IMG/VR virus record: IMGVR_UViG_2518285548_000002
Location: 1 to 64,000 of that record
From: a virus
Taxonomy: Duplodnaviria > Heunggongvirae > Uroviricota > Caudoviricetes
Reading direction: 5' to 3' (one strand)
Length of the DNA stretch: 64,000 nucleotides
The position numbers were made by a program, and so were the translations under genes. This document shows positions 805 through 33,341 of the stretch, piece after piece (position 1 is the stretch's first letter; the number at the start of each line of letters is the position of its first letter). The notes beneath the pieces were generated by a model. It searched no databases. It worked only from the letters and a program-made list of their open reading frames with translations, and had not been told where the DNA came from.

Positions 805-2295
805 CTATACAATCTGGCTTTGGAGTCTCGCGCGAATCTCTCCTAAGCTCTCGTCACGAAGCAACTTACCGTCAAGGAACACTACTTCGAGCTGATCGAG
901 GTGCGCGATCTCGTTATAATCCTCACGGAACATTCCGTCAACATACTTGAAACCACCGTTACCGTCAGACATTACAGCGACCAAACCTCTTTGGGATTTC
1001 TTAATGCCACTGTCTGTCTTAGGGTCTTTGTAGATTAGCTGTTCCTGACCGTTAATAACTACTTGAGTGGCTTTCATAGCATACATGAATGTGTCACGGG
1101 TGTTGTATTGGTAGGTGAAAGAACCGATTCCAAACACTACGTTTGTAGAAGCAAACCCCTTTGCCATTAGAAGCTTACTGATTTCCTCAGCGCGGTCGAG
1201 AGTAATGGAGTCTCCGTAGATAGCTCCAATATGAGGGTCGAGCTGTTTGTACCCCCTAGGTGTTAACGAGCCATTGAAGGTATCCCATAGTACTTCGATC
1301 AATCCCTTGCGAACGATCTCATCCTCCGCATCAGGGTCACCACATAGGATAAGAACAGGGTCTCCTGAGTCAGGGCGAATAACCACTCTACCGTCACGAC
1401 CCATGATCTCTTTTTTAAGGGAAGGGATAACCTCTCCCACAACATGCCAGAAGTCCCACGTATCACAAACGATAGACGCGAATCCTTCGGGATATACCTC
1501 TGTAATCAATCGTTTAATTACAGTCTTTTCATCCTGCCCATTGGCACACATTACAGCGTGTTCGGTAGCAGGAATAGAGGTTCCCACTAATTCCTTCTCG
1601 ATGTCTGCGTTATAGTACTTCTCAAGATAGCCGATAGCGGGGCAGGTGTCCGTACCACTAAAGGATAGAAGATGACCTGCACCGCTTGAAGCCGCCGCTG
1701 AACGACCTGCCATACCACGCATAGAGAAATCATGACCTTGGAATTGTACAGCGTTCAGGTCGCCCCCTGTCAATTTTGCATACTTAGTCAGAATCTCAAG
1801 GTATTGGAAGGCAATCGTAGCACTCGTTGACGGCATCCAAACTTCGCAGGACATAACTGTTTCGATGAAGTTTGTAAGCCAGTAGAACTCTGGTAAAGTG
1901 TTCTCTACTGTAACTACTGGAACTCGTATCTCAGCGCGACTACCTTCTTTCAAGGCTTTGATCTTCAGCGGCAGGTATCCTAGGTCATGGAGAGCGGCTA
2001 TACGTGAACAGTCAGGATTTGTGTGACCTAATGTATGACGAATAAAGCGAACATACTCAGCGATCACAGCTTCCTTCGGGCGGGCGAAGAAGTTGTCATT
2101 GAAGTAGTTAATCAAGAAGTCCTTAATGAATCCCTGTACCCCGAACACCACAACTTTATTGATACCTGGATTGCGGCTACCACGAGGAGTCCATGTGGAG
2201 AACACATACTCTGTTCCTTCAGGGTACTGCTCGGGGTGAGACAGTTTATAGAAGTCACACATGAGTTCAGGCGGGAAGTTATTGGTCGTAGACAT
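805..2295 (-). CDS. nicotinamide phosphoribosyltransferase family protein (NadV / Namat-like)
   Basis: NAMPT-family motifs (DFYK, GTDT, ATEHAVM, IRPDSGDP, YGDSIT). Start taken at internal ATG MSTTNN (2295), which has an AAAGGGG RBS and sits 1 nt after the HAD gene stop. The ORF-track upstream extension to 2535 is unlikely. Confidence 0.85.
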   Translation of the reverse strand: MSTTNNFPPELMCDFYKLSHPEQYPEGTEYVFSTWTPRGSRNPGINKVVVFGVQGFIKDFLINYFNDNFFARPKEAVIAEYVRFIRHTLGHTNPDCSRIAALHDLGYLPLKIKALKEGSRAEIRVPVVTVENTLPEFYWLTNFIETVMSCEVWMPSTSATIAFQYLEILTKYAKLTGGDLNAVQFQGHDFSMRGMAGRSAAASSGAGHLLSFSGTDTCPAIGYLEKYYNADIEKELVGTSIPATEHAVMCANGQDEKTVIKRLITEVYPEGFASIVCDTWDFWHVVGEVIPSLKKEIMGRDGRVVIRPDSGDPVLILCGDPDAEDEIVRKGLIEVLWDTFNGSLTPRGYKQLDPHIGAIYGDSITLDRAEEISKLLMAKGFASTNVVFGIGSFTYQYNTRDTFMYAMKATQVVINGQEQLIYKDPKTDSGIKKSQRGLVAVMSDGNGGFKYVDGMFREDYNEIAHLDQLEVVFLDGKLLRDESLGEIRARLQSQIV

Positions 2296-2296
2296 A

Positions 2297-2740
2297 TTAG
2301 GTAAGCCCCTTTTCGATTTGGGATACTGCTTCAAGCAGTGCGTAATAAGACGAGTGCAAACCTGCTCTGTCGTCAAGCAGGATGTTGTAGTATACCTTGC
2401 GACCACCAAACGGGGTGAAGTCCATGTTCTCATTGATCTTGTCGTAAGGAATAAGATTCTCGTGAAGGTACTCACGGATGTCATCGTACTGACCTTCATG
2501 ACAGCAGGTAAACACGATGAAGTGGGCACCTGCACGTTTGCACCGTTGAAGGAGCGAGATCACGTCATTGTACTTATCCCCTCGCTTATGGAAGTCGAAT
2601 ACGGTGTCATCGAAGTCGTAGGCTATAATTATCTTGCCATGCTCACGCCATTCCTTCAGAAGACGCTGAACTACGTTGTACTGGTCTAGGAAGAAGTCAG
2701 CCACTAGATCATCTCCGTTACTTGGATACTGCTCTCCCAA
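2297..2740 (-). CDS. HAD-superfamily phosphatase
   Basis: DxDxT motif (IIAYDFDDTV) near N-terminus; translationally coupled between the Prs-like and NAMPT-like genes. Confidence 0.7.
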   Translation of the reverse strand: MGEQYPSNGDDLVADFFLDQYNVVQRLLKEWREHGKIIIAYDFDDTVFDFHKRGDKYNDVISLLQRCKRAGAHFIVFTCCHEGQYDDIREYLHENLIPYDKINENMDFTPFGGRKVYYNILLDDRAGLHSSYYALLEAVSQIEKGLT

Positions 2741-3534
2741 ACCTCAGGGATTTCGATTAGCAGTGTGTTGGTGGTGTACACCTTGTCGATCAGATCGGAT
2801 GTGAACACACTGCCCTTGAAAATGGAGTCCTCAGCGTGGGTAACTAGGAGGTATACCTTATCCGCGCCGACATCACGGAGAGCGTTAGAACTACGGATGA
2901 AGGTGTTACCGTAGGAGCAAAGGTCATCAACAATAATAGCCTTGAATCCTTTACCTTCGACAGAGCCAACCAATTGGAGTTTGTCAATCTGCCCTGTCTT
3001 GAAGTCACGCTCTTTAAACCCTACCAGTTGCTTAAACTTGGTGAAGTGCTTGCCATACCGCTTCTGAGCACCCTGATCGGGGAAGAATAGGTAATCCTTT
3101 TCAATGTCGAAGTTCAGGTCTGCCATGACTTCGTGTAGCAACCTGGTTGTAGGGTAGAGTGCTACACTACGATCAAGGAGAGCCATAGTCACGTCCGAGT
3201 GCGGCTCGATCACCGTGACATACTCAAAATTCATGCCGTTAATCATATTGGCTACATACTTTAAGGTAAACACAGAGTTCCCTTCTACCCTATCCATCCT
3301 GCTGTAAGGCATGTACGCGATAGTTAGGTTGGTTGTGAAATAATAGCTATCCAAGAATGATTTAACGAACAGGAGCTTCAGAAGATCGCTATCGTTCTCA
3401 TACTTGAGAGTTACTTCAACTTCTACCTCTCTTGATTTGAATTTAAGAAGTTCGATAATTTGTTCCCCGTCAACCAAAGTCTCCCCGTTAGGGAAGACTT
3501 TGAAGTTGAGGGGGGTACCGTTCAATTTAATCAT
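2704..3534 (-). CDS. ribose-phosphate pyrophosphokinase family protein (Prs / Adps-like)
   Basis: PRPP-synthetase-like fold motifs incl. IIVDDLCSYGNTF (cf. Prs DD..DTGGT PRPP-binding loop); 276 aa, shorter than canonical Prs. Confidence 0.8.
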   Translation of the reverse strand: MIKLNGTPLNFKVFPNGETLVDGEQIIELLKFKSREVEVEVTLKYENDSDLLKLLFVKSFLDSYYFTTNLTIAYMPYSRMDRVEGNSVFTLKYVANMINGMNFEYVTVIEPHSDVTMALLDRSVALYPTTRLLHEVMADLNFDIEKDYLFFPDQGAQKRYGKHFTKFKQLVGFKERDFKTGQIDKLQLVGSVEGKGFKAIIVDDLCSYGNTFIRSSNALRDVGADKVYLLVTHAEDSIFKGSVFTSDLIDKVYTTNTLLIEIPEVWESSIQVTEMI

Positions 3535-18989: not shown

Positions 18990-19032
18990 TCCTTTAGGTA
19001 CCCCACGGGTGGGTGAGGTACCTTAGTAGTGT

Positions 19033-19266
19033 CTAATCCATCAATCTTCTCAGCTCAACTTGTAGTGAGTTCAATCGTCTTCCTTGCTCTCTAAGTTCCC
19101 TCAGCTCTAACTCAACTGCATCTATCTCATCTATGCTAACCTTGCCGTTCATCAATCTATCGGAAAGGTTAGCGATCTTGAAACGATTGCTCTCTATCGC
19201 TTTCTCAAGCAACCCTTGGGTACTTGATAAGATGGAGGTGGATCTATCAAGAGTCATTACACCCAT
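19033..19266 (-). CDS. hypothetical coiled-coil protein
   Basis: ORF. Confidence 0.5.
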   Translation of the reverse strand: MGVMTLDRSTSILSSTQGLLEKAIESNRFKIANLSDRLMNGKVSIDEIDAVELELRELREQGRRLNSLQVELRRLMD

Positions 19267-19852
19267 TTCAGTTCCTCTCCCTCCTGTACCGCCTTGACTA
19301 GGTAGCGTTCGTCATTCTGAATCCAGTGACTCCGATCGTTTTCATCAGGGGTTTCCACATCGACTACATCATCAAACCAATCTTTAAATTTCACACCAAT
19401 CACCTCGGTGAATTAGTAGTGCTCGTAGGCACTCCATGGGGATACCTAACCAGAAGGTTAGATACCCTAGCAGTGTCTAAGATGAGTCACTTGGGCGATA
19501 GTTGACCATAGATATATAGATTCCTGAATGCTAGTCTTCGGGATAGCCTACTAATTGCCACGATCTGCTGAGTCCTTGTGAGCATATTAGGCACCCTTCC
19601 TTTCCTGTTCAGCTATAAGTTGTCTGAGATATTCGATGAGTCCGCCGACTTTGCCAAAGTAAGCCACTATCAATTTAGTCACGCTGATTCCTCCTTGAAT
19701 TTGACACATCTATGCCAACCAGAAACCCAGGATATAAGCACACTCCGTTTAGGTACTAGCAGTACTCATGGGTATGCTTTTTCCTGCACCACCGTACCCC
19801 AAATCGGGGTGGGGCGGGGGGTAGGGCTAGGCATGGTCAGGCACTCAACTCA

Positions 19853-19881
19853 GCTATACGATACAGATATATAAGAGTTAA
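19853..19881 (-). promoter_or_regulatory. promoter-like motif P5 (TTAACT-N17-TATAGC), candidate start of long minus-strand operon
   Basis: rc 19853-19858 TATAGC, rc 19876-19881 TTAACT, 17-nt spacer. Confidence 0.45.
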
Positions 19882-20512
19882 GAGCTTGAACATACCTAGC
19901 CGTGGGTATGGGTAGCCTTCTTGGGCACTCAGGTATACCAATAGGGTAGAGAGTGGGCACCTCAAGCTATCTCCACCACAGCTAGATGGGTAAAGTATGG
20001 TTGACCGTATCATGTGACTACTCACACTGCACTCGGGATTAAAGGGCATGTCTATATAAGCCTGAGCGGTATCCCGTGGGGATGGCTAGGCACACTCATA
20101 CCAAAAGTGGGGCGGGCGGGGGCAGAGTATCCTGTTGGATGCTTACACTCCTATATAAGAGACACCCATCATATAAGAGCATGACACTAGAGAAGGAAGC
20201 TATAAGAGAGACTGCCGAGGTATCGGTCACCATCATGGATAGACTTCACCCGTGACTCGTACTTGCCTATGCAGTCTCATACCCGCTACATATTAGCCTT
20301 CTAGGTACACTCCTAGACGTACCCTTGTGGGTACAGAAGTACTAGGCTTCGCTTTCTCTGCTCAAGCTCTCGGTTGGTGCGTGGTGTGTGAAGTGGTAAT
20401 AACTTAGACCCAAATTGCGGCTGTTGAACTGACTTCTTTATATAGGAATAGCGGCTCATTGGATTATTGGCTAATTCCACAACATCACATAATACGGATT
20501 ATGTGCAATAGG

Positions 20513-20575
20513 CTCCTAGGTCTGCCACTCATGGGCTAGTCAGGACTACCCAAGCATAGGCATGGGTAGGTCTTG
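20513..20575. repeat. left arm of ~40-bp inverted repeat flanking gene 20579..20977
   Basis: AGGTCTGCCACTCATGGGCTAGTCAGGACTACCCAAG; its rc matches 20993-21055. Confidence 0.6.
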
Positions 20576-20578
20576 ATA

Positions 20579-20977
20579 TTAGTTAGTGCCTTGCATCGCT
20601 TTGAACTGCTTGAATGCTTGGAACTCAGCCCAAAGTTTAGCATCTTCCTCGCTCATGGTAGGTACACTGGTAGCAGGTGTAGCAAGTTCTTGTACTGGTG
20701 AAACATACTCGTCAATAGGGATATAGGCGTTCAGGTTCAAGACTACATTCTGAAAGCCTTCCTTTTTCAAGCGAATACCGCCTAAAGTAGATGCTACGCG
20801 GGCAGACTTCTCGCTTTGTGTGAGAACTTCCTTATCAATCACGTTCAAATCAACCTCAATAATGAGCTTGTTTTTGTCGTTCACGCTTATTTTCATGTTC
20901 TCAGGTGCCTTCTTTGATTGCGCTCGTTTAGCCGCTTCCTTCTCGAATTTAGGCATAGTGATAGCTTTGTTTATCAT
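20579..20977 (-). CDS. hypothetical protein, single-repeat paralog of 18456..18989
   Basis: Shares IIEVDL...GFQNVVLNLNAY motif. Confidence 0.55.
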   Translation of the reverse strand: MINKAITMPKFEKEAAKRAQSKKAPENMKISVNDKNKLIIEVDLNVIDKEVLTQSEKSARVASTLGGIRLKKEGFQNVVLNLNAYIPIDEYVSPVQELATPATSVPTMSEEDAKLWAEFQAFKQFKAMQGTN

Positions 20978-20992
20978 GGATAATCAGTCTCC

Positions 20993-21055
20993 TTTGGTGT
21001 GGTTTGACTACCTTTGGTAGTCCTGATTAGCCCATGAATGAACAGACCTCTAGCA
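20993..21055. repeat. right arm of inverted repeat
   Basis: GGTAGTCCTGATTAGCCCATGAATGAACAGACCT. Confidence 0.6.
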
Positions 21056-21908
21056 TAGCAAGGCATCTGTAACCACCGAACCAGTCGGCTCTCGCACCTT
21101 GTACTATGCACGTCATAACGCAGACGTATTGCGTGATATCCTCGCCATGTTGGGCATGAACTGTAAAGCGTAGGCTGTTGCCATAGTTCAATCCGTCATG
21201 TCACACACATAAGTGTGGCAAGAGAAGTTGCGTATCCCATGCACATGTAGTGCATGTTTCGGGTATCGAGTTGTCAAAGGACGTGAGACACATTTCGTGC
21301 CTTGCCACATGTCTTGCATTCGAGTTGTTACTCGTTCGAGTCGTTCGTGGCGACCGATTCGACACCCATATCTAAGAACGCAATAGAGTCGGATTGCAAT
21401 ACCTCTTGAACAGGTTTTTTTATAAAAAATAAAATCAAACAGAAGTCAAAATCGTACTCCCCCCAGTGTCTTGGTTTTTTCAATGATTCCGAATCGGCGC
21501 ACGGAGTGTCATGATACATATGGGAAATTTTTAGTGAACCTTGATGCGCGATAGGTCTTTTCTAAAGGGGGTGTCTCGTGAGGTCTCGGATGGTGCGAAA
21601 GGGGAAAGGAAATTGTCTTGGAGAAATGTTTTGGGGCGAGGGTGGCGGGGTCTTTGGCAAGGGGGATTGGTAAGGTGTTGGGAGAGGGGAAGGGCAAATT
21701 GAAAGAGAGTCGTTCCTCTTATATAAGGAAAGCGACTCTCTTGGGGGAGCAGGGAATTTTTTGTGGAACCTTGGTGCGGTACGGTTCCGTGATTGTTACG
21801 ATGTTACCTTACTTTATATGTATTATACGTTTTTCCGCTACGCGGATTACTGTTATGTTCGGCAGGGCGCACTTCCCTAGCATAGGTACGAGCGTGATCA
21901 GACCGTTG

Positions 21909-22187
21909 CTATCTGTTTTGAGGTTCACCTTTGTCAAATACCTTGCTTACTACTCCTAGTGCGAACCCTAAGGCGGCGGCTACAAGCCAACCCTGCTTAC
22001 CGTTTTCTTCATCTATTAGATACTCCAAAGCTCCTAAGTAAGCAAGAGCCACACCGATCAGAATGCAAGATATGAAGCTAGTTGCAGGATACGAGTGGGT
22101 GAATGCCGCTATTAAAATGAATATAATGATTCCAATTGCGATTGTCATGTTACACCTACTTACTCGAATATTTAGATAGCTCGCCAT
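21909..22187 (-). CDS. small membrane protein (2-3 TM)
   Basis: Hydrophobic segments; overlaps end of SLH protein gene. Confidence 0.5.
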   Translation of the reverse strand: MASYLNIRVSRCNMTIAIGIIIFILIAAFTHSYPATSFISCILIGVALAYLGALEYLIDEENGKQGWLVAAALGFALGVVSKVFDKGEPQNR

Positions 22188-22953: not shown

Positions 22954-23237
22954 AGTTACTACCTGCCTTTCTTATGATGTTTCCCCATATTAGCATAGAA
23001 CGATTTGATTCGTATATACGAGACAATACACGATAATCCACCTATAGGAACCTATAGCATCGTCCACTGCTAGGAGCGTACTACAGACTTCCATCGTCCC
23101 CCTTAAAACACAAATTCCCTTCTCATCAGAATCTAAGATATTTATTACATAATTTAACTACTATTTACAAATATATACATTTAAGGTAATATGTTAAGAA
23201 ATATCACGTTTTATTAATTTTCTGGAAGGGGATTTGT

Positions 23238-24524
23238 ATGGACGAAATTTTAACTTCCACAACATTGGGGGAACTGATAAAGAAGAAAAGAGAGGATTTA
23301 GGTATTAGTTTGTCTGAGGTTTCCAGAAAAACTGGCATTAGCAAGGGAGGGATTTCCAAGATTGAAAATGGTGAAACAAAAGGACCAGAGCTGGCTACTT
23401 TAAAGCCAATTGCCGATGTTTTAGAAATCCCTTATGAGGAAATAATTGAATATTGCATCAGGGCAGAATATCGTTATGATGTCTACGATGATCTCTTGGA
23501 AGAAGCCATAGAAATTGCTAACCCTTCTTTGATTGATAAAGTGGCAATCAAATTCCTAGAAAATATTAAGCATGAAACAGATTCAGCGCTGGAGCATTTG
23601 GAACGATTTGCAGATTCCAGCACAAACAACGATACAAAGGTAACGCTCTATAACACAATTGTGAAGTACTCTAGACAGCATGGGCTACCACATTACATAG
23701 CTAAAGGGTTATATCAAAAATACTTAATTGAGAGACAAAATTTAAAACGTTTGGAAGAATCCTTTAGAGATGGTGAAGAAATCACTCACTATGTTGATTT
23801 TTTATCTGATAATGAAAAGATAACATATTACTTTAAAATGGCTTTACATGCTCATAATACTAAAAAATATAATGAGTGTATCGAGTATTGTGAAGCAGGT
23901 CTTAGACTAGATGTTTCAAGCAACGAGTTGAAGGCTAGAGCTTATTTATCTATGATAAATTCCTATGGTTTCCTGAAAAATTACGATATGGCAGAGTACC
24001 ATCTGGACTTTTTAGAAAAATACGGATTTGAGTTCGTTTCCGATTCATGTAAAATTACTAGAGCTATTATACAAGGGAAAAGGAAACATTTCAGTATAGC
24101 TATTCCAGCACTAAGAAAATGCTATGAAGTGGTACAAAGTGACTTGAAGATACATGTAATCAATGAATTATTAGATTTGTATCTTCAGGAGAGTGATTCT
24201 ACTTCGATTGAAGAAATTTTTAACCTTGAGCCAGAATTTCTACCTCAAAATCCAACAACTCCTTATAAAAAAATAGCTATCGGTAAATACTTCCAGTATA
24301 AAGGGAATTATTTGACCAAAAATTGCATATTTAATGAAGGAGCAAGATCATATTTACTAAGCTTAAAGACATTTGGAGCTGTTTATGCAATTCAAGAACT
24401 TGCAGAATGCATGACCGAATTTTTAGCTTTGTTTACAGCAAATTCTAAATCAATGGATTTGGAATATGTTGTAAGACTAAAAGAGGTGTATACTGATATT
24501 GCAAACAAAAAGGAGGGGTTATAA
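23238..24524 (+). CDS. RNPP-family regulator (N-terminal XRE HTH + TPR-like helical repeats; AimR/NprR/PlcR-like)
   Basis: HTH LGISLSEVSRKTGISKGGISKIENGET; long helical C-terminal region; coupled downstream peptide gene. Confidence 0.7.
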   Translation: MDEILTSTTLGELIKKKREDLGISLSEVSRKTGISKGGISKIENGETKGPELATLKPIADVLEIPYEEIIEYCIRAEYRYDVYDDLLEEAIEIANPSLIDKVAIKFLENIKHETDSALEHLERFADSSTNNDTKVTLYNTIVKYSRQHGLPHYIAKGLYQKYLIERQNLKRLEESFRDGEEITHYVDFLSDNEKITYYFKMALHAHNTKKYNECIEYCEAGLRLDVSSNELKARAYLSMINSYGFLKNYDMAEYHLDFLEKYGFEFVSDSCKITRAIIQGKRKHFSIAIPALRKCYEVVQSDLKIHVINELLDLYLQESDSTSIEEIFNLEPEFLPQNPTTPYKKIAIGKYFQYKGNYLTKNCIFNEGARSYLLSLKTFGAVYAIQELAECMTEFLALFTANSKSMDLEYVVRLKEVYTDIANKKEGL

Positions 24525-24525
24525 T

Positions 24526-24669
24526 TGAGAAAAGCATATGGAATGTTGATGTTGTCGTTAGCCTTAGTGATGACTCTAGGCATTACAGCAAATACTGAAA
24601 CTGCAAGTGCTAAAGAATTAAATTCTCCGCAAAAAGCTCAATCTTATTTTGTTGATCCTGGTCATTAAT
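24526..24669 (+). CDS. secreted signalling pro-peptide candidate (47 aa, TTG start)
   Basis: AAGGAGGGG RBS; signal-peptide-like MLMLSLALVMTLGITA; starts 2 nt after regulator stop. Confidence 0.5.
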
Positions 24670-24696
24670 TCAATTGTTTTATCCTCAAATAAAAAA

Positions 24697-24730
24697 GAGA
24701 GCGCTAAATAAATAGCGTTCTTTTTTTTTG
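24697..24730 (+). terminator. rho-independent terminator
   Basis: AGCGCTA-loop-TAGCGTT followed by T9. Confidence 0.55.
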
Positions 24731-24972
24731 TGAAAATTTTATTGCTCATCATAAATATAGTTAGAACGTTTCCTCGAAAAAAAAATAGGGGGATTCCCCT
24801 AAACGGATGGTAAAATAATCAATAACAGGAAAAAGGAGGGATTTAGTTAATTGGTATCAGTTAAACAACGGGGTGTCCCAACGGTCGCTAAACTAATTGG
24901 AACACCCCGCTTTGATCAACTAAAAACGTTGTTCAGAAAAATTATATCATCGAATTAAAGGAGGAAAAAGCA

Positions 24973-25158
24973 TTATTTCACTGTCTGAAAATGATTTATT
25001 AAAGTCTTTTGAAGACCTCCAGCAAAAATTAGTAGAACTATATCGTACAGAAGGTTCATTTTTAAGTCCAACAGTGTTGCAAATAAGTCAACAACTAGAC
25101 GAATATATTGTCGCAATTCAGAAGATGGCAAAAAATCTAAATGAATGTCGAGACTAGA
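24973..25158 (+). CDS. Spo0E-like small protein, apparent AUU start
   Basis: SQQLDEYI matches Spo0E family signature; no ATG/GTG/TTG in frame after upstream TGA; GGGAGG RBS 7 nt before ATT. Confidence 0.4.
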
Positions 25159-25249
25159 ATAGACTGTACGGAAGCCCTTGCGATATATGAATAGCCGTTT
25201 TTAGCTATTCGAAGTCCGACAGACCTTTAAATTAGGAGGAAATGCACGA

Positions 25250-25810
25250 ATGAGAAAAAAACTAAAGATTGCAATTGTTACTACTTTATCATGTGTATCT
25301 CTTTTTTCTGCTGTAGCATATGCTGATTACGGCAAGAAATATCTGTTTACGGGAGGGTTACGGGCTTCAGATGTTAAGAAAATCAAGTATGTAATAGCTG
25401 GCGGAAGTTCTTCCTATCAAAGAAATGTAATGAAAGCTGGAGTTGAGGCTTGGAACGGAATTTCATCAAAGGTTAAGCTAACTGAGGGTAACTCTGGTGC
25501 AAAAGTGAGTGTGATACTCACAAATGCTGATAATGATGATTTATATGGGATTATGATGCCATTTAGCAATGGAGCTAGAGATTATGATCTAGATGAAATT
25601 TGGGACAACATAGATGTTATTGGATATGACAATACTCTATCGAGAATTGGGCTTAGCGAACAAAGGGGCGTATTTACTCACGAGATGGGACATGCATTGA
25701 GTTTAGCACATAATAACTCAGACTCAGATTTGATTATGCACCCATATGCATTAAGTACAGATATTCAGACAGATGATGAGAAAAATCTGAAGTTGAAGTG
25801 GGGGAAATAG
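25250..25810 (+). CDS. secreted zinc metalloprotease (HExxHxxxxxH, matrixin/snapalysin-like)
   Basis: Signal peptide; THEMGHALSLAHNN. Confidence 0.7.
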   Translation: MRKKLKIAIVTTLSCVSLFSAVAYADYGKKYLFTGGLRASDVKKIKYVIAGGSSSYQRNVMKAGVEAWNGISSKVKLTEGNSGAKVSVILTNADNDDLYGIMMPFSNGARDYDLDEIWDNIDVIGYDNTLSRIGLSEQRGVFTHEMGHALSLAHNNSDSDLIMHPYALSTDIQTDDEKNLKLKWGK

Positions 25811-25813
25811 TTA

Positions 25814-26401
25814 ATGAGCATGAAAAAACTGGCAGGAACAATTGTTTGTTCGGTTGCATTGGTTGCTGGTGGCTTTTACTTTTTGACGCCATCTAAAATT
25901 ATGAAGGTCGAGGCTAAAGTAGTAGGTTACAAAAATGTCGAAGCGTTAGAAAGGGGAGCAGATTATATTGTAGTAGGACATCTTGAAAGGGACTTCTCAG
26001 AATATGAGCCAACCTTTAAATATACTTCAGAGGGAAGAGTTGGAGAATTCTATACAAAAACTGATATCATCATTGATAAAACCCTCAAAGGAGACGCTGA
26101 TACAAAGGTTATTCCTGTCCTTCAAGCCGCCGCCTATGTAGAAAGCTCTTTTAAATATCAAGCCGATTTAGAAACAATAGAGGGTTTTACACCTATGGAA
26201 AAAGGAAAAGAGTACCTTCTGTTCTTAAAAAAGGCTCATGACGGTGAAAACTATAGTTTGTTAGGTGTATACCAAGGCAAATTTGATATTGATGAGTCTG
26301 ATAAGGTACAAGGGTTAGCATCAGAGAATAGCCACTATCAAAATTTGAGAGATGAAGTAGTGGAAAAATATAAAGATATTTTCGAAAAGTCAGTTCCATA
26401 A
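25814..26401 (+). CDS. secreted/membrane-anchored hypothetical protein
   Basis: N-terminal hydrophobic anchor. Confidence 0.6.
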   Translation: MSMKKLAGTIVCSVALVAGGFYFLTPSKIMKVEAKVVGYKNVEALERGADYIVVGHLERDFSEYEPTFKYTSEGRVGEFYTKTDIIIDKTLKGDADTKVIPVLQAAAYVESSFKYQADLETIEGFTPMEKGKEYLLFLKKAHDGENYSLLGVYQGKFDIDESDKVQGLASENSHYQNLRDEVVEKYKDIFEKSVP

Positions 26402-26425
26402 AGTTGAGACTTAGGGGGAAGTAAT

Positions 26426-26626
26426 ATGCAAGCTTGGGCTGATTCCGACCCTATTGATTGTACACAGCTTCAAAGGGACAAGAAAAAGGTTCAGAGAGCA
26501 ATTGACTTTGAAAAGTCACTGGAAGGTAAGCGTCTTACAGGAGAAAGTCCCCAAAACAAAAATCAAACAGGAGTGCTTTTGTATGACAGCGCTAAAGAAA
26601 CTTGCAACCAGTCCAATACGGGCTGA
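26426..26626 (+). CDS. possible small ORF (66 aa) with strong RBS, overlaps start of next regulator
   Basis: GGGGGAAG RBS before ATG. Confidence 0.3.
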   Translation: MQAWADSDPIDCTQLQRDKKKVQRAIDFEKSLEGKRLTGESPQNKNQTGVLLYDSAKETCNQSNTG

Positions 26627-28016
26627 GATCGAACACCATCTCAAATCATATAACTACACGCTTAGTAAGCTCAGTGAATTGACCAATATCAATACTGGTC
26701 ATCTAAGTGGGTATTTGAAGGGACATAAGTATAGGAAACTAACACTTGACCAATTGAATGCAATTGGACAAGTGTTTGAAAAACCTGATGGGTGGTTATA
26801 CGATTTATACGTTGAGGAATACTTCTATAGAGTAAAAATTACTCTCAGACGAGCGAAATCATTTCTGGTGCAATGTGCAGAATTAGGGAGATATGATTGT
26901 ATTCAGTTGGTAATTCCTCTACTCTTGGAACACCCTGATAAAATTAAAATTTTTTTTGGTGTAGCAGAACAGTTGTTTTACAAAGGGAGACAGAAGGAGT
27001 CCATCTTTTTTTACCAATTAGTGGTCGATAACGAAAAAAATATGTTCAAAGAACCAATCATCATGAGTCACTACCGGCTATTTCAACTCTCAGAGAGCAC
27101 AAACACCGAGGCACTATGGAAGGCTGTTCTTATTTTTGAGCCTGTTCGGAGGGAACTGTCTATATATTGCCAATTGGATGCGCTTTTACGACTAGGAAAT
27201 CATTGTTGTACATTGCGTAGATGGAAAGAGGTAGAGAAATTTGCGGACGAACTTTTAGAACTTACTAATTTGGTTTACAAAGATGAGCTGTCTAAGAAAA
27301 AGAGGGGAAATGGTGACGGAATAGAACTGCTTAATCTTGAGAGTCATTTGGTCGCTTACTATGGTCAGGGCTATCTTTTAAAAGCAGTATCTTTAGAGAA
27401 ACAAGGGCTGTATGAAGAAGCCAAGGAATTTGTTTCTGGTTATGCTGATCTGAGCTGGTTTGAACTACTTGACGAGTCTGGACAGGCAGAGGTAGCTAAA
27501 TATAAGAAATTAGCGTTGCTTAACATGTGTAGGCTAGATCTCCTCATGGGAGATACAAGTATACTTCCTGACTTTGTGGAATTCCTTGAATATAACCCAA
27601 CAGAATTATTGTTTGGTTTTATAACAATCGTGGAATCAGCCAACAAGTATGGATTTTCAATAGACATCATACTAGACAAGTTCTCGAAGGAGATTAACTA
27701 TTTTGATAATTACCATGATTCAGCCAATGTAGATCGACATCTACAATTTAGGTATCAGTTAGCTGTTTACCATTTAAAAAATAAGCGCCCTAACAGTGGT
27801 ATCAAAGAAATATTAAGATGCATGACTTTATCTACTGTATTGAATGGCAGTAAAGATTTCATACGATGCGTAGCACTATTTGAAGCGCATAGATACCAAG
27901 CATCAGCTCATCAGGAAATAGAATACAAAAAAAAATTGGAGGAGGTGATGCGTGATGAAAGATTAATTGGACGCTCCCAACCCCTCAGTAAGGAACGTCC
28001 AACAGTAAAACATTGA
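26583..28016 (+). CDS. HTH-domain regulator with long helical (TPR-like) C-terminal region
   Basis: Start trimmed to MTALKK (AGGAGTG RBS); HTH LSKLSELTNINTGHLSGYLKG. Confidence 0.6.
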   Translation: MTALKKLATSPIRAEIEHHLKSYNYTLSKLSELTNINTGHLSGYLKGHKYRKLTLDQLNAIGQVFEKPDGWLYDLYVEEYFYRVKITLRRAKSFLVQCAELGRYDCIQLVIPLLLEHPDKIKIFFGVAEQLFYKGRQKESIFFYQLVVDNEKNMFKEPIIMSHYRLFQLSESTNTEALWKAVLIFEPVRRELSIYCQLDALLRLGNHCCTLRRWKEVEKFADELLELTNLVYKDELSKKKRGNGDGIELLNLESHLVAYYGQGYLLKAVSLEKQGLYEEAKEFVSGYADLSWFELLDESGQAEVAKYKKLALLNMCRLDLLMGDTSILPDFVEFLEYNPTELLFGFITIVESANKYGFSIDIILDKFSKEINYFDNYHDSANVDRHLQFRYQLAVYHLKNKRPNSGIKEILRCMTLSTVLNGSKDFIRCVALFEAHRYQASAHQEIEYKKKLEEVMRDERLIGRSQPLSKERPTVKH

Positions 28017-28276
28017 AGTATTGTAACTATCTTAGCACAAAATGATTGCGATTTACAAAAATTCACAAAACTTTTAAAAGAATTAGACACTAGTTGGTCG
28101 ATATGAATAGGCTGTACGGGAAACTTTACAAAGCCCAATAGGGGGAATAATTATAAAGCCGTGTTCCAGCTATTCTTTGAAGACGACTAAAATTCCCCAT
28201 TATAAACGCTGATCTTCACAAGATGATGAAGTAAATATTTGTAATTTTTTAATCAATTTGGTATATTATAGAAGGA

Positions 28277-28930
28277 GTGTTATGTATGAAAAAGGAAATA
28301 TTAACTGGAGTATTATCCGTAACCTTGTTATCAACGGGTATCATTCCAGCAGTAGCTTCAAATAACATTGACTCTAATCTGTCGATCGAACAAAAAAACC
28401 AATATGTTCAAGCGGAGATGGACAAAGAAGGACTCTCCTTGTTAGCAGGTTTAAAAGTTGACATGGGGCAATATGTCACCTTGGGTAAAGATAATTTACT
28501 ACATCTCGATCCTGAAGCTAAGGAACTGATTGGTGAGAAAGCGTATAGTATTTTCGAGCGTGGCGTTAAGACAATCAATGACGCTTTAAACAGCGGAGAA
28601 TATCAAATACAAAATAACAAATTAGTAAAAACAGACCTAGTACATCCTCAATTTGATCACGAAGAATTTTGGTGGGGAATATCACTGCAATACAATAATA
28701 GAGAAACAAAAGAACTTGCCGCTTTGTGTGAAGAATATTCTACTGATTGGTCATTAGCGTCAGCACTTACTGGCTTGGTTCCAGGTGGACAAAGTATAGG
28801 TATTGCTTCAGCAATTATGTCATGGGGAAACGCAAAATTTGCAAGAAAACTTACTAGCAAAAATAAGGGGAAAGGTGTAAACGTCGATATAGCTTGGGTA
28901 CCAGTAGTTATCTCGATCTATGGTAGGTAG
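28277..28930 (+). CDS. secreted hypothetical protein
   Basis: Signal peptide; strong promoter TTGTAA-N17-TATATT and RBS AGAAGGAG. Confidence 0.6.
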   Translation: MLCMKKEILTGVLSVTLLSTGIIPAVASNNIDSNLSIEQKNQYVQAEMDKEGLSLLAGLKVDMGQYVTLGKDNLLHLDPEAKELIGEKAYSIFERGVKTINDALNSGEYQIQNNKLVKTDLVHPQFDHEEFWWGISLQYNNRETKELAALCEEYSTDWSLASALTGLVPGGQSIGIASAIMSWGNAKFARKLTSKNKGKGVNVDIAWVPVVISIYGR

Positions 28931-28970
28931 TAATTACTTATAGAGATAGCTGGAAGGAGAGAGTTATACT

Positions 28971-29123
28971 ATGGTGTCTTTTTTGACAGCTGTCGTCCTG
29001 TTTAGTCTATTAGGTTACCTATATTTCAATTCTGAAGTAAACCCAATGATACTGATCTTATTAGGGATATCAGCTTCCGTAAATGTGTATCGTGGGTTCA
29101 AAGAATTAAAGAAAAAATCGTAG
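28971..29123 (+). CDS. small hydrophobic membrane protein (50 aa)
   Basis: GGAAGGAGAGAG RBS; not in track. Confidence 0.4.
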   Translation: MVSFLTAVVLFSLLGYLYFNSEVNPMILILLGISASVNVYRGFKELKKKS

Positions 29124-29318
29124 TATTTAAAATACGATTTACAGATCGTGTCCCGATAATAACTTTTAAATAGACAAACGTCAGAGTCTCTTGTATTCTG
29201 ACGTTTGTCTTATTATTTAGATTTAAGTTACACTTTTATTTACAAACTAAATTACTTGTTTTGAGTCTCCTGTCTACTTGCAATCTACATCCGTAGATAA
29301 TAGTGGCTGACCGCTCGA

Positions 29319-30137: not shown

Positions 30138-30211
30138 TGGCAACGGATACAGGAATCGAACCTGTGCGAACGGCTTCAAAGACCGTTGTTCTACCACTAA
30201 ACTAATCCCCT
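30138..30211 (-). tRNA. tRNA-like gene, anticodon UUG (Gln-like), one G.G mismatch in acceptor stem
   Basis: Manual fold: acceptor AGGGGAT/ATCCGTT, D-arm GTTT-AGTGGTA-GAAC, anticodon stem-loop ACGGT-CTTTGAA-GCCGT, T-arm ACAGG-TTCGATT-CCTGT, encoded CCA. Confidence 0.4.
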
Positions 30212-32203: not shown

Positions 32204-32803
32204 ATGGCAGAGGAGAGAAATAGTGAACTCTCACTTACCTCGAAGCAAAGCAAGATCGTTAAGTACAAACTTGAGGAAGATGTAGTGAACCTTCGCTTGA
32301 GCGGTATGTCCTATCAGCAGATCGCTGACGAGATGAACGCGAGTGGGAAAGTTCCTGATGGTGATCTTCTCGATAAGTACGTGGTCATGCGATTCTTCGA
32401 GAAACTTCCTGATATTAACAAACAGATCGTGAAGGAAGACAAACGAAGACTTGTTCAAGTCGTAAACAACCACTTGGATATTATCCATGAGGTAACTTCT
32501 CTATTCAATAAAACTAAGGTGCTTCTCGAAGCTATGGAAGAAGATGCTTACGAAAAGGGTAAGTTTGTTAACCCGTACCAGTACAAGGCATTAGTTTCCG
32601 AGATGCGAGAGTTCTTGAAGCAAATGACCGAAATTCAGAAAGAGATCAACGACTACAATAACATCCGAAAGTTCATGGAAATTGTCCTATCCACACTTCA
32701 AGATGAATGTCCTGAGAAGATTCCTGTGATCGCGGAGAAATTGAAAATGGCTAAGGGAACAACATGGTTTGCAGACATGATGAGGGGGAAGCCGAATGAG
32801 TAA
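32204..32803 (+). CDS. putative terminase small subunit / HTH DNA-binding protein
   Basis: HTH-like SYQQIADEM; position upstream of TerL; AAGAGGTGAGG RBS. Confidence 0.4.
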   Translation: MAEERNSELSLTSKQSKIVKYKLEEDVVNLRLSGMSYQQIADEMNASGKVPDGDLLDKYVVMRFFEKLPDINKQIVKEDKRRLVQVVNNHLDIIHEVTSLFNKTKVLLEAMEEDAYEKGKFVNPYQYKALVSEMREFLKQMTEIQKEINDYNNIRKFMEIVLSTLQDECPEKIPVIAEKLKMAKGTTWFADMMRGKPNE

Positions 32804-33341
32804 GCACGGAGAGCTGACGGTGTTTTGGGGAACTATGTTCGCGGGTAAATCAACAAATCTGATCACCAACTTAAAAGAAGCGGGTGCAGGTGCGATCTGT
32901 TTCAAGCCTTACTCAGATAATAGGGACGAGCCTAATGTTATTAGAACGCATGACGGTCTTATGTACCCAGTAACGAGGGTAAAAAAGGCAAGCGAAATAC
33001 TTCTACACGTTAATCCAGGTCTGACTACTGTGGGAATTGAGGAAGCATCTTTGTTCTACGAAGACCCGACTCTTATACCAACTATTCAAACACTAAGGGA
33101 GATCGGAGTTAACGTAGTAGTAACTGGATTGGATATGGACAGGCATGGAGTCCCATTCTCCCAAATGCCCTCTATCGCGGCAATTGCTGATAACTGTTTC
33201 AAATTGAGAACTCGGTGCTCGTGTGGGGAGTTTGCTTCACTTAACTACTACAGAGGTGACGGTAGCACATTTGTAGCTCGGGACGACATGTACGAGCCTA
33301 TGTGCAGAACATGTTTCTCAAAGCAGAAGCCATCCCTTTAA
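32796..33341 (+). CDS. tdk: thymidine kinase
   Basis: P-loop GTMFAGKST, VGIEEASLF, C-terminal Cx2C..Cx2C zinc ribbon. Confidence 0.85.
   Translation: MSKHGELTVFWGTMFAGKSTNLITNLKEAGAGAICFKPYSDNRDEPNVIRTHDGLMYPVTRVKKASEILLHVNPGLTTVGIEEASLFYEDPTLIPTIQTLREIGVNVVVTGLDMDRHGVPFSQMPSIAAIADNCFKLRTRCSCGEFASLNYYRGDGSTFVARDDMYEPMCRTCFSKQKPSL

Follow-up and report, generated by a model that had tools for sequence, protein, structure and literature searches.

The question raised by this locus is whether a phage carries a complete peptide-signalling pair and, if so, what the pair controls. The window, a stretch of 64,000 nt from the IMG/VR virus record IMGVR_UViG_2518285548_000002, was previously given a sequence-only reading, in which an RNPP-type regulator with HTH and TPR domains and a coupled secreted pro-peptide, resembling AimR/AimP, NprR/NprX and PlcR/PapR, was proposed to lie inside a phage and to serve lysis-lysogeny or host manipulation. 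After follow-up, the pair is probably an RRNPP-type peptide quorum-sensing cassette in a Jenst-like phage, with a Spo0E-like gene and, through it, host sporulation as its likely targets. Features of the region are listed in Table 1.

Table 1. Coordinates of the features described in the text (positions in the window).
Feature	Position	Strand	Remarks
Low-GC accessory island	22954..29300		approximate boundaries; holds receptor to AloR-like gene
Promoter-like site upstream of reg1	23164..23192	+	TTTACA-17-TAATAT; consensus scan, 9/12 matches
Receptor reg1	23238..24524	+	428 aa, ATG start; XRE-type HTH and TPR-like helical domain
Pro-peptide RBS	24510..24518	+	AAGGAGGGG, inside reg1 3' end; direct sequence reading
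Pro-peptide gene	24525..24668	+	47 aa, TTG start
Hairpin between A- and T-runs	24691..24728		bidirectional intrinsic-terminator-like; inverted repeat 16 nt, 88% complementary
Putative spo0E-like promoter region	24766..24816	+	invariant ACGTTTC (24766-24772), extended -10 TGGTAAAAT (24808-24816)
Leader hairpins H1, H2 of spo0E-like gene	24869..24936	+	H1 24869-24909; H2 ~24912-24936
Spo0E-like aspartyl-phosphate phosphatase gene	24972..25157	+	61 aa; apparent ATT start 7 nt after GGAGG
Secreted matrixin-like Zn-metalloprotease gene	25250..25810	+	Pfam Peptidase_M10, E=2.6e-5
Membrane-anchored protein gene	25814..26401	+	195 aa; directly after matrixin-like gene
Conserved upstream ORF	26426..26626	+	66 aa; overlaps start of second receptor
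Second receptor, AloR family	26583..28016	+	477 aa

The placement inside a phage was borne out by genes for terminase, portal, major head protein and helicase, next to one for NAMPT, and by a portal 47% identical to the portals of the Brevibacillus phages Jenst and SecTim467. The host element is a Jenst-like Brevibacillus phage and the quorum-sensing cassette is accessory cargo, held in an island with a GC content of 0.357 compared to 0.45–0.46 in the flanking phage DNA. The island is a mosaic: positions 23223-25173 share 93% DNA identity with a B. laterosporus chromosome, and the nearest copies of the matrixin-like and 195-aa proteins are found on plasmids. It has recently been exchanged with the host chromosome. 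The equivalent island of SecTim467 and Sundance was termed a 'putative transposable region', and it is dispensable, since it is deleted from Jenst, the near-twin of SecTim467 (Berg et al. 2016, PMC4909266). Berg et al. described inverted repeats flanking the SecTim467 island; a search around the island in the window turned up none.

The description of reg1 as an XRE HTH followed by a helical region held. Residues 14-69 matched Pfam HTH_3 (E=1.9e-12), giving the N-terminal HTH of the RRNPP class, and residues 198-225 gave a TPR_1 match below the Pfam threshold. Structure prediction, which had been proposed as a check and was run on the receptor alone, returned a TPR-like fold with a predicted domain of approximately nine helix pairs, of the TPR or TPR-like kind that defines the class. 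Sequence and profile searches of PDB chains matched only designed TPRs and, through the HTH, SinR, phage immunity repressors and the 434 and P22 repressors; reg1 is without a solved relative in these searches. In fold searches, generic TPR proteins scored almost equal to RNPP receptors, and AimR structures were among the matches with scores below those of NprR or Rap. No NCBIfam models were found for reg1, the pro-peptide or the AloR-like protein. The promoter-like site upstream of reg1 is weak evidence, because the count of such sites in the region was not above the shuffled expectation.

The small ORF was confirmed at 47 aa with a TTG start and a strong RBS (GGAGG to TTG spacing of 8 nt), with two corrections: the TTG abuts the TAA stop of reg1, so that the reported 2-nt gap is 0 nt, and the ORF ends at 24668 instead of 24669. 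The receptor gene and the small ORF make up an operon of two genes. The signal-peptide-like N-terminus and hydrophilic C-terminus were likewise recovered, as a basic start (MRKAYG), 14 hydrophobic residues, a signal-peptidase-like site between ASA and K, and a hydrophilic tail ending ...QSYFVDPGH; the mature signal is predicted to lie within the C-terminal ...SYFVDPGH. By calculation, 47 codons stay open by chance at a given position with a probability of ~3% at 35% GC. Compared to its homologue in the chromosomal locus L017, the ORF differs by 7 synonymous and 4 non-synonymous codons, the latter confined to codons 24-35, the spacer between signal sequence and C-terminus, and in chromosomal homologues the last 11 aa (...KAQSYFVDPGH) are identical. 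In the codon comparison, the ORF shows purifying selection.

For comparative analysis, related loci were collected from a single-sequence scan of genome contigs (9 loci), an alignment-based viral scan, look-ups of encoding contigs, and plasmid and phage BLAST collections. An equivalent small ORF was present in 20/20 related loci, its position relative to the receptor stop ranging from -74 to +24 nt, and down to 26% receptor identity. In the receptor, the N241/S242 region is nearly invariant. All 20 had at least two K/R followed by a 12-residue stretch with mean hydropathy of at least 2.1, and thereby the adjacent pro-peptide gene of the RRNPP class; receptor stop and peptide start abut or overlap in most loci, as in translational coupling. 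C-termini in related loci include YVVDPGH, YTDNPGY, YTDDPGY, YHDDPGH and DYDPGY, and the closer loci have the common motif D-x-P-G-[HY]. Identity in the receptor helical domain correlated with peptide C-terminal similarity (rho 0.745; reached by 0/2000 permutations), a covariation that is also expected from mere linkage and shared ancestry. Cassettes of the family recur in no fewer than three sequenced phages of Brevibacillus and in approximately 10 IMG/VR viral contigs. The copy in the window nevertheless has its nearest relatives on chromosomes and not in phages, at 95% and 82% protein identity, and the order receptor, peptide, spo0E-like gene is also found in ordinary chromosomal settings. 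Fold, conserved pair, C-terminal motif and the remote AloR homology described below agree on an RNPP-type receptor with a coupled pro-peptide, as had been proposed.

Among known systems, the organisation is close to AloR/AloP of Paenibacillus polymyxa, in which AloR13/AloP13 experimentally lowers, through the mature peptide, expression of the neighbouring spo0E-like gene (Voichek et al. 2020, PMC7425212). Both are restricted to Paenibacillaceae and have a receptor of HTH and divergent TPR domains, a pro-peptide of 32-50 aa directly downstream that is secreted or, in the window, predicted to be, and, often, a spo0E-like gene thereafter; AloP peptides, however, end in, e.g., SHGRGG or ...HGVGG. 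By the operational 30%/80% criterion of Bernard et al., reg1 falls outside the AloR family, with 21% identity to AloR13 over 112 aa only, whereas profile-profile comparison with AloR gave 97.3% probability (16% identity, 371 columns including the helical domain), a remote yet real, significant homology. The AloR-family member of the window is instead the second receptor (39% identity to AloR13 over 451 aa), downstream of which (26583-28016) no cognate signal-peptide ORF was found. By elimination, reg1 is assigned to the Paenibacillaceae family called 'cluster 8'. Plasmid pBRLA33 of B. laterosporus LMG 15441 carries one AloR-AloP and one cluster-8 system (Bernard et al. 2023, PMC10075063), and exactly two HTH-TPR receptors were found on it: one is AloR-like (44% to AloR13), and the other is 42% identical to reg1 over 418 aa, with a downstream peptide ending DYDPGY. 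The assignment, made by way of this non-AloR receptor, is indirect.

Cluster 8, a group of candidate RRNPP systems, includes Sundance gp120/gp121 and SecTim467 gp71. Their receptors belong to the family of reg1, with 44-45% identity along the entire protein, and receptor, signal-peptide ORF and spo0E-like gene follow one another as in the window, within the same low-GC mobile island. Their peptides (YTDNPGY, YTDDPGY) share the motif of YFVDPGH in the window and represent another pherotype; in the window, unlike in both, the matrixin-like and 195-aa genes separate the spo0E-like gene from the AloR-like receptor. The Sundance homologue is, in the prediction of Bernard et al., a density-dependent sporulation-hijacking module; in the searched supplement text of both Bernard papers, Sundance, its accessions and the peptide motifs gave no match.

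The likeness to the three systems named at the outset stands at the level of RNPP type, whereas homology to AimR/AimP does not: that resemblance is analogy only, and AimR is a weaker structural match than NprR. NprR/NprX of the Bacillus cereus group has no detectable sequence homology to reg1 (8% identity), and mature NprX is an internal pro-peptide segment and not the C-terminal end. PlcR/PapR, also of the B. cereus group, shares the HTH-TPR receptor and the downstream pro-peptide with C-terminal signal, and the matrixin-like gene parallels NprB, the adjacent, co-regulated metalloprotease by which PapR is matured. Berg et al. 2016 (PMC4909266) obtained PlcR/PapR7 (3U3W) as an HHpred match of the SecTim467 homologue, with a probability of 100%. 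AimR/AimP/AimX of SPbeta-like phages is likewise phage-borne, with an HTH and TPR fold and the succession of receptor, secreted pro-peptide, terminator and separately expressed target. AimR nevertheless has no sequence similarity to reg1 and is not its homologue by that measure, the arbitrium target aimX, a lysogeny regulator, is replaced by a gene of the Spo0E-like family (PF09388), which is not of the aimX type, and the cassette, unlike AimR/AimP, is common to host chromosomes and plasmids.

The sequence-only reading passed over the Spo0E-like gene, which lacks a canonical start codon and was missed for that reason. Its product matched Pfam SpoOE-like (PF09388) across the whole 42-position profile (E=7.7e-10, 39 bits vs a cut-off of 23). 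There is no in-frame ATG, GTG or TTG downstream of the TAA at 24921-24923. The in-frame TTG further upstream, from which the gene is called in loci L016 and L014, lies beyond a stop codon in the window. The ATT with the same RBS spacing is conserved in L016 and L014 (three loci with the window), and translation from it is plausible from these alignments, although the window copy may be poorly translated or decaying. The upstream extension called in L016 and L014 was rejected as the Spo0E-like N-terminus: it crosses the leader hairpins, shows no conservation at the protein level in L017, L018 or L023, and is interrupted by a stop codon in the window. A Spo0E-like gene follows the pair in 13/21 loci, among them those of the phages Sundance and SecTim467 as well as plasmid and chromosomal ones, and is absent downstream in 8/21.

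Between the pair and this gene, the terminator-like hairpin, called on the minus strand by the terminator scan and conserved as GAACGC...GCGTTC with a T-run at the same position in other loci, closes the receptor-peptide operon. In 12-locus alignments, ACGTTTC and the extended -10 are invariant or nearly so. There is no good -35 element; an extended -10 without a -35 is as expected for an activator-dependent promoter, and 24766..24816 would have a promoter or operator role. No operator was identified in a search of the spo0E-like promoter. The palindrome TAGGGGGATTCCCCTA (24786-24801) was rejected, being perfect here, degenerate in L016 and absent in L017. The leader hairpins (13-nt arms, 92% complementary) are present in 11/12 aligned leaders, with compensatory changes at 4/16 pairs plus UA to UG changes; H1 could be either an operator or an RNA structure, and the leader matched no Rfam family. 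In L016, a second spo0E-like gene has the same conserved promoter and leader without an adjacent receptor, so these elements belong to the spo0E gene and are no proof of control by reg1. The matrixin-like and 195-aa genes behind the spo0E-like gene of the window are possibly co-transcribed with it: no terminator-like sites were found by the terminator scan from 25157 to 26600, and the order spo0E, matrixin, hypothetical also occurs on a B. halotolerans plasmid (PGAP product 'matrixin family metalloprotease').

Spo0E-family proteins remove phosphate from Spo0A~P. In the favoured mechanism, the 47-aa pro-peptide would be exported by Sec, cleaved after ASA to a secreted form of 19 aa and trimmed extracellularly to a short C-terminal peptide within ...SYFVDPGH, which the host oligopeptide permease would bring back in. 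Binding to the TPR-like domain of reg1 would then alter engagement of DNA by the HTH, most likely at the separately promoted spo0E-like gene, possibly also at the two genes behind it, for the matrixin-like enzyme and the 195-aa protein. The favoured direction, modelled by analogy on AloR13/AloP13 and AimR/AimP, is that peptide-free reg1 activates the spo0E-like promoter and that the peptide shuts it off at high density, so that the cassette would couple carrier-cell density to sporulation entry and other Spo0A-controlled behaviour. Of the two roles first suggested, host manipulation fits better than lysis-lysogeny, because the next gene is a Spo0E-like phosphatase and the trio is also found in ordinary chromosomal contexts; the cassette more likely times host sporulation than the phage lysis-lysogeny choice.

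A further, more tentative suggestion, on balance doubtful, is that the phage copy is tied into a host channel and not a private one, and would both sense and add to the host peptide signal. It is raised because the mature signal ...KAQSYFVDPGH is common to the phage copy and B. laterosporus chromosomal systems; receptor differences between phage and chromosomal copies are concentrated outside the peptide-binding half. The density of host cells producing the same peptide would then decide the timing of a Spo0E-like brake on sporulation, with the structured leader and ATT start holding the phosphatase low and tunable. The island would be nearly self-contained, with the pro-peptide encoded in it, two sister-family receptors flanking the target and the matrixin-like enzyme being a possible maturation protease, as NprB is for PapR.

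Three other explanations were weighed against a sporulation-timing cassette. The cassette might be a passenger, a normal host module for quorum sensing and sporulation timing that was lately acquired from the chromosome of B. laterosporus, without phage-specific role and maybe decaying. We regard this as unlikely; it concerns adaptive value, not mechanism, and overlaps the preferred reading. It would account for the 93% DNA identity of 23223-25173 with a chromosomal copy and the identical mature peptide end, the GC of 36% against 45-46% in the phage backbone, and an island dispensable enough to be deleted in Jenst and present in SecTim467 (Berg et al. 2016). The missing canonical start of the spo0E-like gene, with the L016/L014-type upstream TTG blocked by a stop, and the frame-shifted AloR-like copy in L016 would fit decay. 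Yet the receptor and peptide ORFs are intact, the latter under purifying selection, family cassettes recur in the Brevibacillus phages and viral contigs counted above, and an ATT that three loci keep, ideally spaced from a strong RBS, speaks for a genuine non-canonical start and against decay.

An arbitrium-like switch, in which recent infections would be signalled by the peptide and the phage's own lysis-lysogeny decision would fall to the receptor, as with AimR/AimP/AimX in SPbeta-like phages, is quite improbable. The element is a phage, the layout of receptor, peptide, terminator and separately controlled gene is the same, and AimR structures are among the structural matches. In some Bacillus phages, e.g. 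phi29, lytic development is repressed by Spo0A~P, so a phage Spo0E could indirectly sway lysis vs dormancy. Least credible by far is that there is no signalling pair at all, reg1 being an HTH-TPR phage repressor that senses a non-peptide ligand and the small ORF a chance frame or an unrelated membrane or secreted protein. TPR domains bind ligands of many kinds, generic TPR proteins nearly equal RNPP receptors in fold searches, and only the HTH matches solved proteins by sequence (SinR, 434 and P22 repressors). A chance frame is, however, at odds with a like-featured ORF in every related locus down to 26% receptor identity, with the coupled stop and start in most of them, and with a conserved C-terminus behind a variable middle, the RRNPP pro-peptide pattern.

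Experimentally demonstrated phage-encoded peptide signalling comprises few systems only, arbitrium and phage-carried Rap-Phr, and phage quorum sensing controlling sporulation via Spo0E is an idea based on genomic signatures alone. The system type was already predicted in related phages, so the window adds a further member and leaves the picture of Voichek et al. 2020, Bernard et al. 2021/2023 and Berg et al. 2016 unchanged. It is a clean, well-delimited example and a practical test case, because each element from receptor and peptide to target promoter and leader is defined, a peptide as short as the predicted mature one can be synthesised, and near-identical chromosomal copies can serve as controls. 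If the cross-talk reading holds, the phage would here be listening in on a peptide channel of its host.

Elsewhere in the window, a 2737-aa ORF without PHROG match in the tail-gene region is guessed from size and position to be the tape-measure protein, and a tRNA was the sole match in an Rfam search of the whole window. The 66-aa ORF upstream of the second receptor is kept in four loci, with 4 synonymous changes and 1 non-synonymous change in its first 12 codons.

Both open reading frames named by the sequence-only reading, a receptor with a helix-turn-helix (HTH) and a signal-peptide-like small ORF behind it, were present. The receptor TAA directly abuts the TTG of the pro-peptide gene, with a gap of 0 nt instead of the 2 nt claimed. 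Receptor residues 14-69 matched Pfam HTH_3 (E=1.9e-12), and the match to Pfam TPR_1 was sub-threshold. The pro-peptide runs from MRKAYG through MLMLSLALVMTLGI to TANTETASA and then KELNSPQKAQSYFVDPGH, which is read as a basic N-terminus, a hydrophobic core, an A-x-A site and a hydrophilic tail.

Coordinates of the receptor-peptide cassette and neighbouring features
Feature	Position	Strand	Detail
Receptor ORF	23238-24524	+	428 aa
Pro-peptide RBS	24510-24518	+	AAGGAGGGG; GGAGG 8 nt 5' of TTG
Pro-peptide ORF	24525-24668	+	47 aa, TTG start
Terminator-like hairpin	24691-24728		3' of pro-peptide gene
Invariant ACGTTTC	24766-24772		between pro-peptide and spo0E-like genes
Extended -10, invariant	24808-24816		TGGTAAAAT; no convincing -35
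spo0E-like leader hairpins	24869-24909 and about 24912-24936		3' of purine-rich stretch
Spo0E-like gene, apparent start	24960-24964 (RBS); 24972 (ATT)	+	GGAGG, ATT 7 nt on; end 25157
Matrixin-like protease and 195-aa membrane-anchored protein	25250-26401		between spo0E-like and AloR-like genes
Second receptor	26583-28016		AloR family; 39% identical to AloR13 over 451 residues

The receptor was modelled with AlphaFold2 from a 65-sequence alignment (mean pLDDT 89.3, pTM 0.81), and the model was all-helical, with about nine helix pairs behind a five-helix HTH. Its ranked structural matches were headed by NprR bound to NprX (4gpk, score 19.6) and included Rap of phage phi105 with peptide (rank 5, 17.2), AimR (rank 11, 15.1), PlcR (rank 12, 14.8) and RapH (rank 24, 13.7), interspersed with generic TPR proteins and at sequence identities of 7-13%. 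Generic TPR superhelices predominated in Foldseek, where PlcR and AimR were found at E ~1e-3, and the solved chains matched by sequence or profile were HTHs and designed consensus TPRs only. The ranked matches and Foldseek therefore indicate a TPR fold, on which the RNPP-type interpretation depended. The best viral structural match, BFVD S5MC02 (a 425-aa unnamed viral protein, TM-score 0.67, 15% identity), may likewise be a receptor of this class carried by a phage.

More than 150 receptor homologues were found in a collection of 5.8 billion proteins, nearly all from Brevibacillus (mainly B. laterosporus) and Paenibacillus elgii, tyrfis and ehimensis, each genome carrying many paralogues. Among 1.84 billion cluster representatives, 93 relatives were found by profile search at E<=1e-30, roughly 60-70 of them full length; judging by these searches, the family is small and clade-restricted. 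Relatives of the window pro-peptide formed only three clusters in the large protein collection.

For comparison, 20 related loci (designated by L-numbers) from phages, IMG/VR viral contigs, plasmids and chromosomes were used, with receptor helical domains 26-95% identical to that of the window. All 20 had an ORF of 35-54 aa starting -74 to +24 nt from the receptor stop, and each of these encoded at least two K/R residues, then a strongly hydrophobic 12-mer, then a hydrophilic tail. The peptides of the closer clade ended in YFVDPGH, YVVDPGH, YTDNPGY, YTDDPGY, YHDDPGH, DYDPGY, YRDDPGH, YLDDPGY or RDDPQG, and those of distant members in DEPKW, AEPDW, VDTEW, VINPW, VVEW or HDTGW. Receptor identity tracked peptide C-terminal similarity (Spearman 0.745, reached by none of 2000 permutations), a correlation that linkage alone would also yield.

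The two receptors nearest to that of the window, at 95% (L016) and 82% (L017) identity, come from B. laterosporus chromosomes. In each case a 47-aa gene comes next, which likewise starts with TTG and matches the window pro-peptide exactly in its last 11 residues, and a spo0E-like gene lies behind it. DNA identity to L016 was 93% over 23223-25173. Relative to L017, 54 of the 75 amino-acid changes in the receptor fell in residues 1-200, the C-terminal 228 residues being better conserved, and the pro-peptide ORF differed by 7 synonymous and 4 non-synonymous codons, the latter all within codons 24-35, which separate the signal sequence from the conserved C-terminus. This is the pattern expected for a translated pro-peptide with two important ends. 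The rest of the island is a mosaic: the matrixin-like protease shared 89% identity with its counterpart on a B. halotolerans plasmid, the 195-aa protein 83% with that on pAZOBL1 and the AloR-like gene 63-69% with its relatives.

With AloR13, the receptor of the Paenibacillus polymyxa pair AloR13/AloP13, the window receptor shared 21% identity over only 112 residues, which places it outside the published operational definition of AloR. By hhalign it matched AloR with 97.3% probability (E=2.6e-11, 371 columns including the helical domain), as expected of a remote homologue. A B. laterosporus LMG 15441 plasmid has been described with one AloR-AloP system and one system of cluster 8, a group of candidate RRNPP systems of Paenibacillaceae (Bernard et al. 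2023, PMC10075063). This plasmid is pBRLA33, which encodes two such receptors and no others, one AloR-like and the other 42% identical to the window receptor, with a peptide ending DYDPGY. Since its only non-AloR receptor is the one akin to ours, the window receptor can be assigned to cluster 8 by elimination. On pBRLA33 (L035, 9893-13065) the cluster-8-type pair lies head to tail with an AloR-type pair (YEHGVGG), and the two sister families tend to co-travel.

A Spo0E-like domain missed by the sequence-only reading is encoded in the stop-to-stop frame 24924-25157 (+; Pfam PF09388, E=7.7e-10, 39 bits, cut-off 23). No ATG, GTG or TTG was found in this frame, and a TAA at 24921-24923 blocks extension to the upstream in-frame TTG that gene callers use in L016 and on the B. 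halotolerans plasmid (L014). The RBS-ATT arrangement is also kept in these two loci, and we therefore read an apparent non-canonical ATT start, although it is conceivable that the window gene is instead decaying. A spo0E-like gene lies 3' of the pair in 13 of 21 loci, including phages Sundance and SecTim467, the B. halotolerans plasmid and the two closest chromosomal homologues.

A leader of ~150 nt precedes this spo0E subfamily in the window (24806-24970), L016 (15350-15545), L017, L014, L001, L018-L020, L023 and L024, and contains the extended -10, a purine-rich AGGAGGAAGAAAGGAGG-like stretch and two hairpins. It was absent from SecTim467, where the leader is shorter, and from the AloR-associated spo0E gene of L015. 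The hairpins were kept in 11 of 12 aligned leaders, with compensatory changes in 4 of 16 base pairs and some UA to UG changes; the leader had no match in Rfam. This arrangement points to a gene with its own, activator-dependent promoter and a structured 5' leader. The same promoter and leader stand before a second spo0E-like gene of L016, one with no receptor beside it; these elements therefore belong to the spo0E subfamily, and their conservation alone is no proof of receptor control. No operator for the receptor was identified in this interval. At most loci (L001, L002, L014, the second copy of L016, L018-L020 and L023; matching window position about 24745-24760) TTTGTCGAAAT stands ~9 nt 5' of the invariant ACGTTTC and about 45-55 nt 5' of the -10; it includes TGTCGAA, which we take to be a perfect Spo0A-box consensus. 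The SYFVDPGH clade (window, first copy of L016, L017) has TCATCATAAAT in its place, a hint that Spo0A feeds back on the spo0E-like genes at most loci but not in this clade.

The island that holds the pair (roughly 22954-29300, about 6.3 kb) has a GC content of 0.357 against 0.45-0.46 on both sides, and no inverted repeats were found flanking it. The protease is a secreted small metzincin with the zinc motif HEMGHALSLAH, its plasmid homologue being called 'matrixin family metalloprotease' by PGAP, and could mature the pro-peptide or act as a virulence factor. The spo0E-matrixin-hypothetical run also occurs on the B. halotolerans plasmid, and no terminator-like sites were found between 25157 and 26600. 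No signal-peptide ORF was found 3' of the second receptor; SecTim467, pAZOBL1 and L016 (frame-shifted) also have such an orphan AloR-like receptor 3' of a spo0E-like gene. A 66-75-aa ORF with its own RBS, overlapping the receptor start, is conserved 5' of it (window 26426-26626, L002 5781-5981, L015 6651-6869, L016 10066-10293). It begins M[QL]AW[AG][DG]S[DE]PI[DN]C, has no signal peptide, is annotated as hypothetical by PGAP in pAZOBL1 and differs between window and SecTim467 by 4 synonymous and 1 non-synonymous changes in its first 12 codons. It may serve translational coupling, or it may supply the orphan receptor with an unconventional peptide partner.

The evidence best supports a receptor-peptide quorum-sensing operon with the spo0E-like gene, possibly also the protease and the 195-aa protein, as output, which would tie carrier-cell density to Spo0A~P levels and, through them, to sporulation. 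We favour a peptide-free receptor that would activate the spo0E-like gene and a peptide that would shut it off, a direction taken from AloR13 and AimR; synthetic mature AloP13 reduces expression of the adjacent spo0E-like gene (Voichek et al. 2020, PMC7425212). An arbitrium-type role in lysis-lysogeny is less likely, because the target differs from that of arbitrium, the receptor has no sequence relation to AimR and the cassette also occurs in non-prophage chromosomal contexts. That the small ORF and receptor do not signal at all is hard to reconcile with the small-ORF conservation pattern. The recent transfer of the cassette and the loss of the island in Brevibacillus phage Jenst are compatible with a neutral passenger, a reading that concerns adaptive value and not mechanism. 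The earlier interpretation of the pair is essentially right, with support from the fold, the conserved small ORF and the family placement.

Cassettes homologous to this one have been reported in phages before, as predicted quorum-sensing systems that hijack sporulation. Sundance was named as bearing a quorum-sensing system beside spo0E (Bernard et al. 2021), and SecTim467 gp67-71 and the Sundance cassette were described as a low-GC 'putative transposable region' shared with the host chromosome, with gp71 matching PlcR/PapR by HHpred (Berg et al. 2016, PMC4909266). The window cassette is a further case of this predicted kind, the function of the receptor family being so far predicted. Of local interest are the predicted mature signal, identical to that of a host chromosomal system, the orphan receptor with its upstream ORF, the protease, and the apparent ATT start and structured leader.

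The phage setting claimed earlier was borne out by PHROG matches to terminase large subunit, portal, major head protein, virion structural proteins, helicase, NAMPT and PRPP synthetase. From size and position only, we took a 2737-aa ORF among the tail genes, without any PHROG match, to be the tape-measure protein. The portal was 47% identical to those of Jenst and SecTim467, and no phage record matched the region at nucleotide level. Two stretches, 19026-20579 (about 1.5 kb) and 20977-21909 (0.9 kb), have backbone GC (0.44-0.48), no ORF of at least 90 aa and no Rfam match. Only one RNA gene was detected across the window, a tRNA-Gln (anticodon TTG) at 30138-30211 (-). NAD+ salvage genes lie at 805-3534 (-; nicotinamide phosphoribosyltransferase, PHROG E=1.9e-193, and ribose-phosphate pyrophosphokinase), and a thymidine kinase at 32796-33341.
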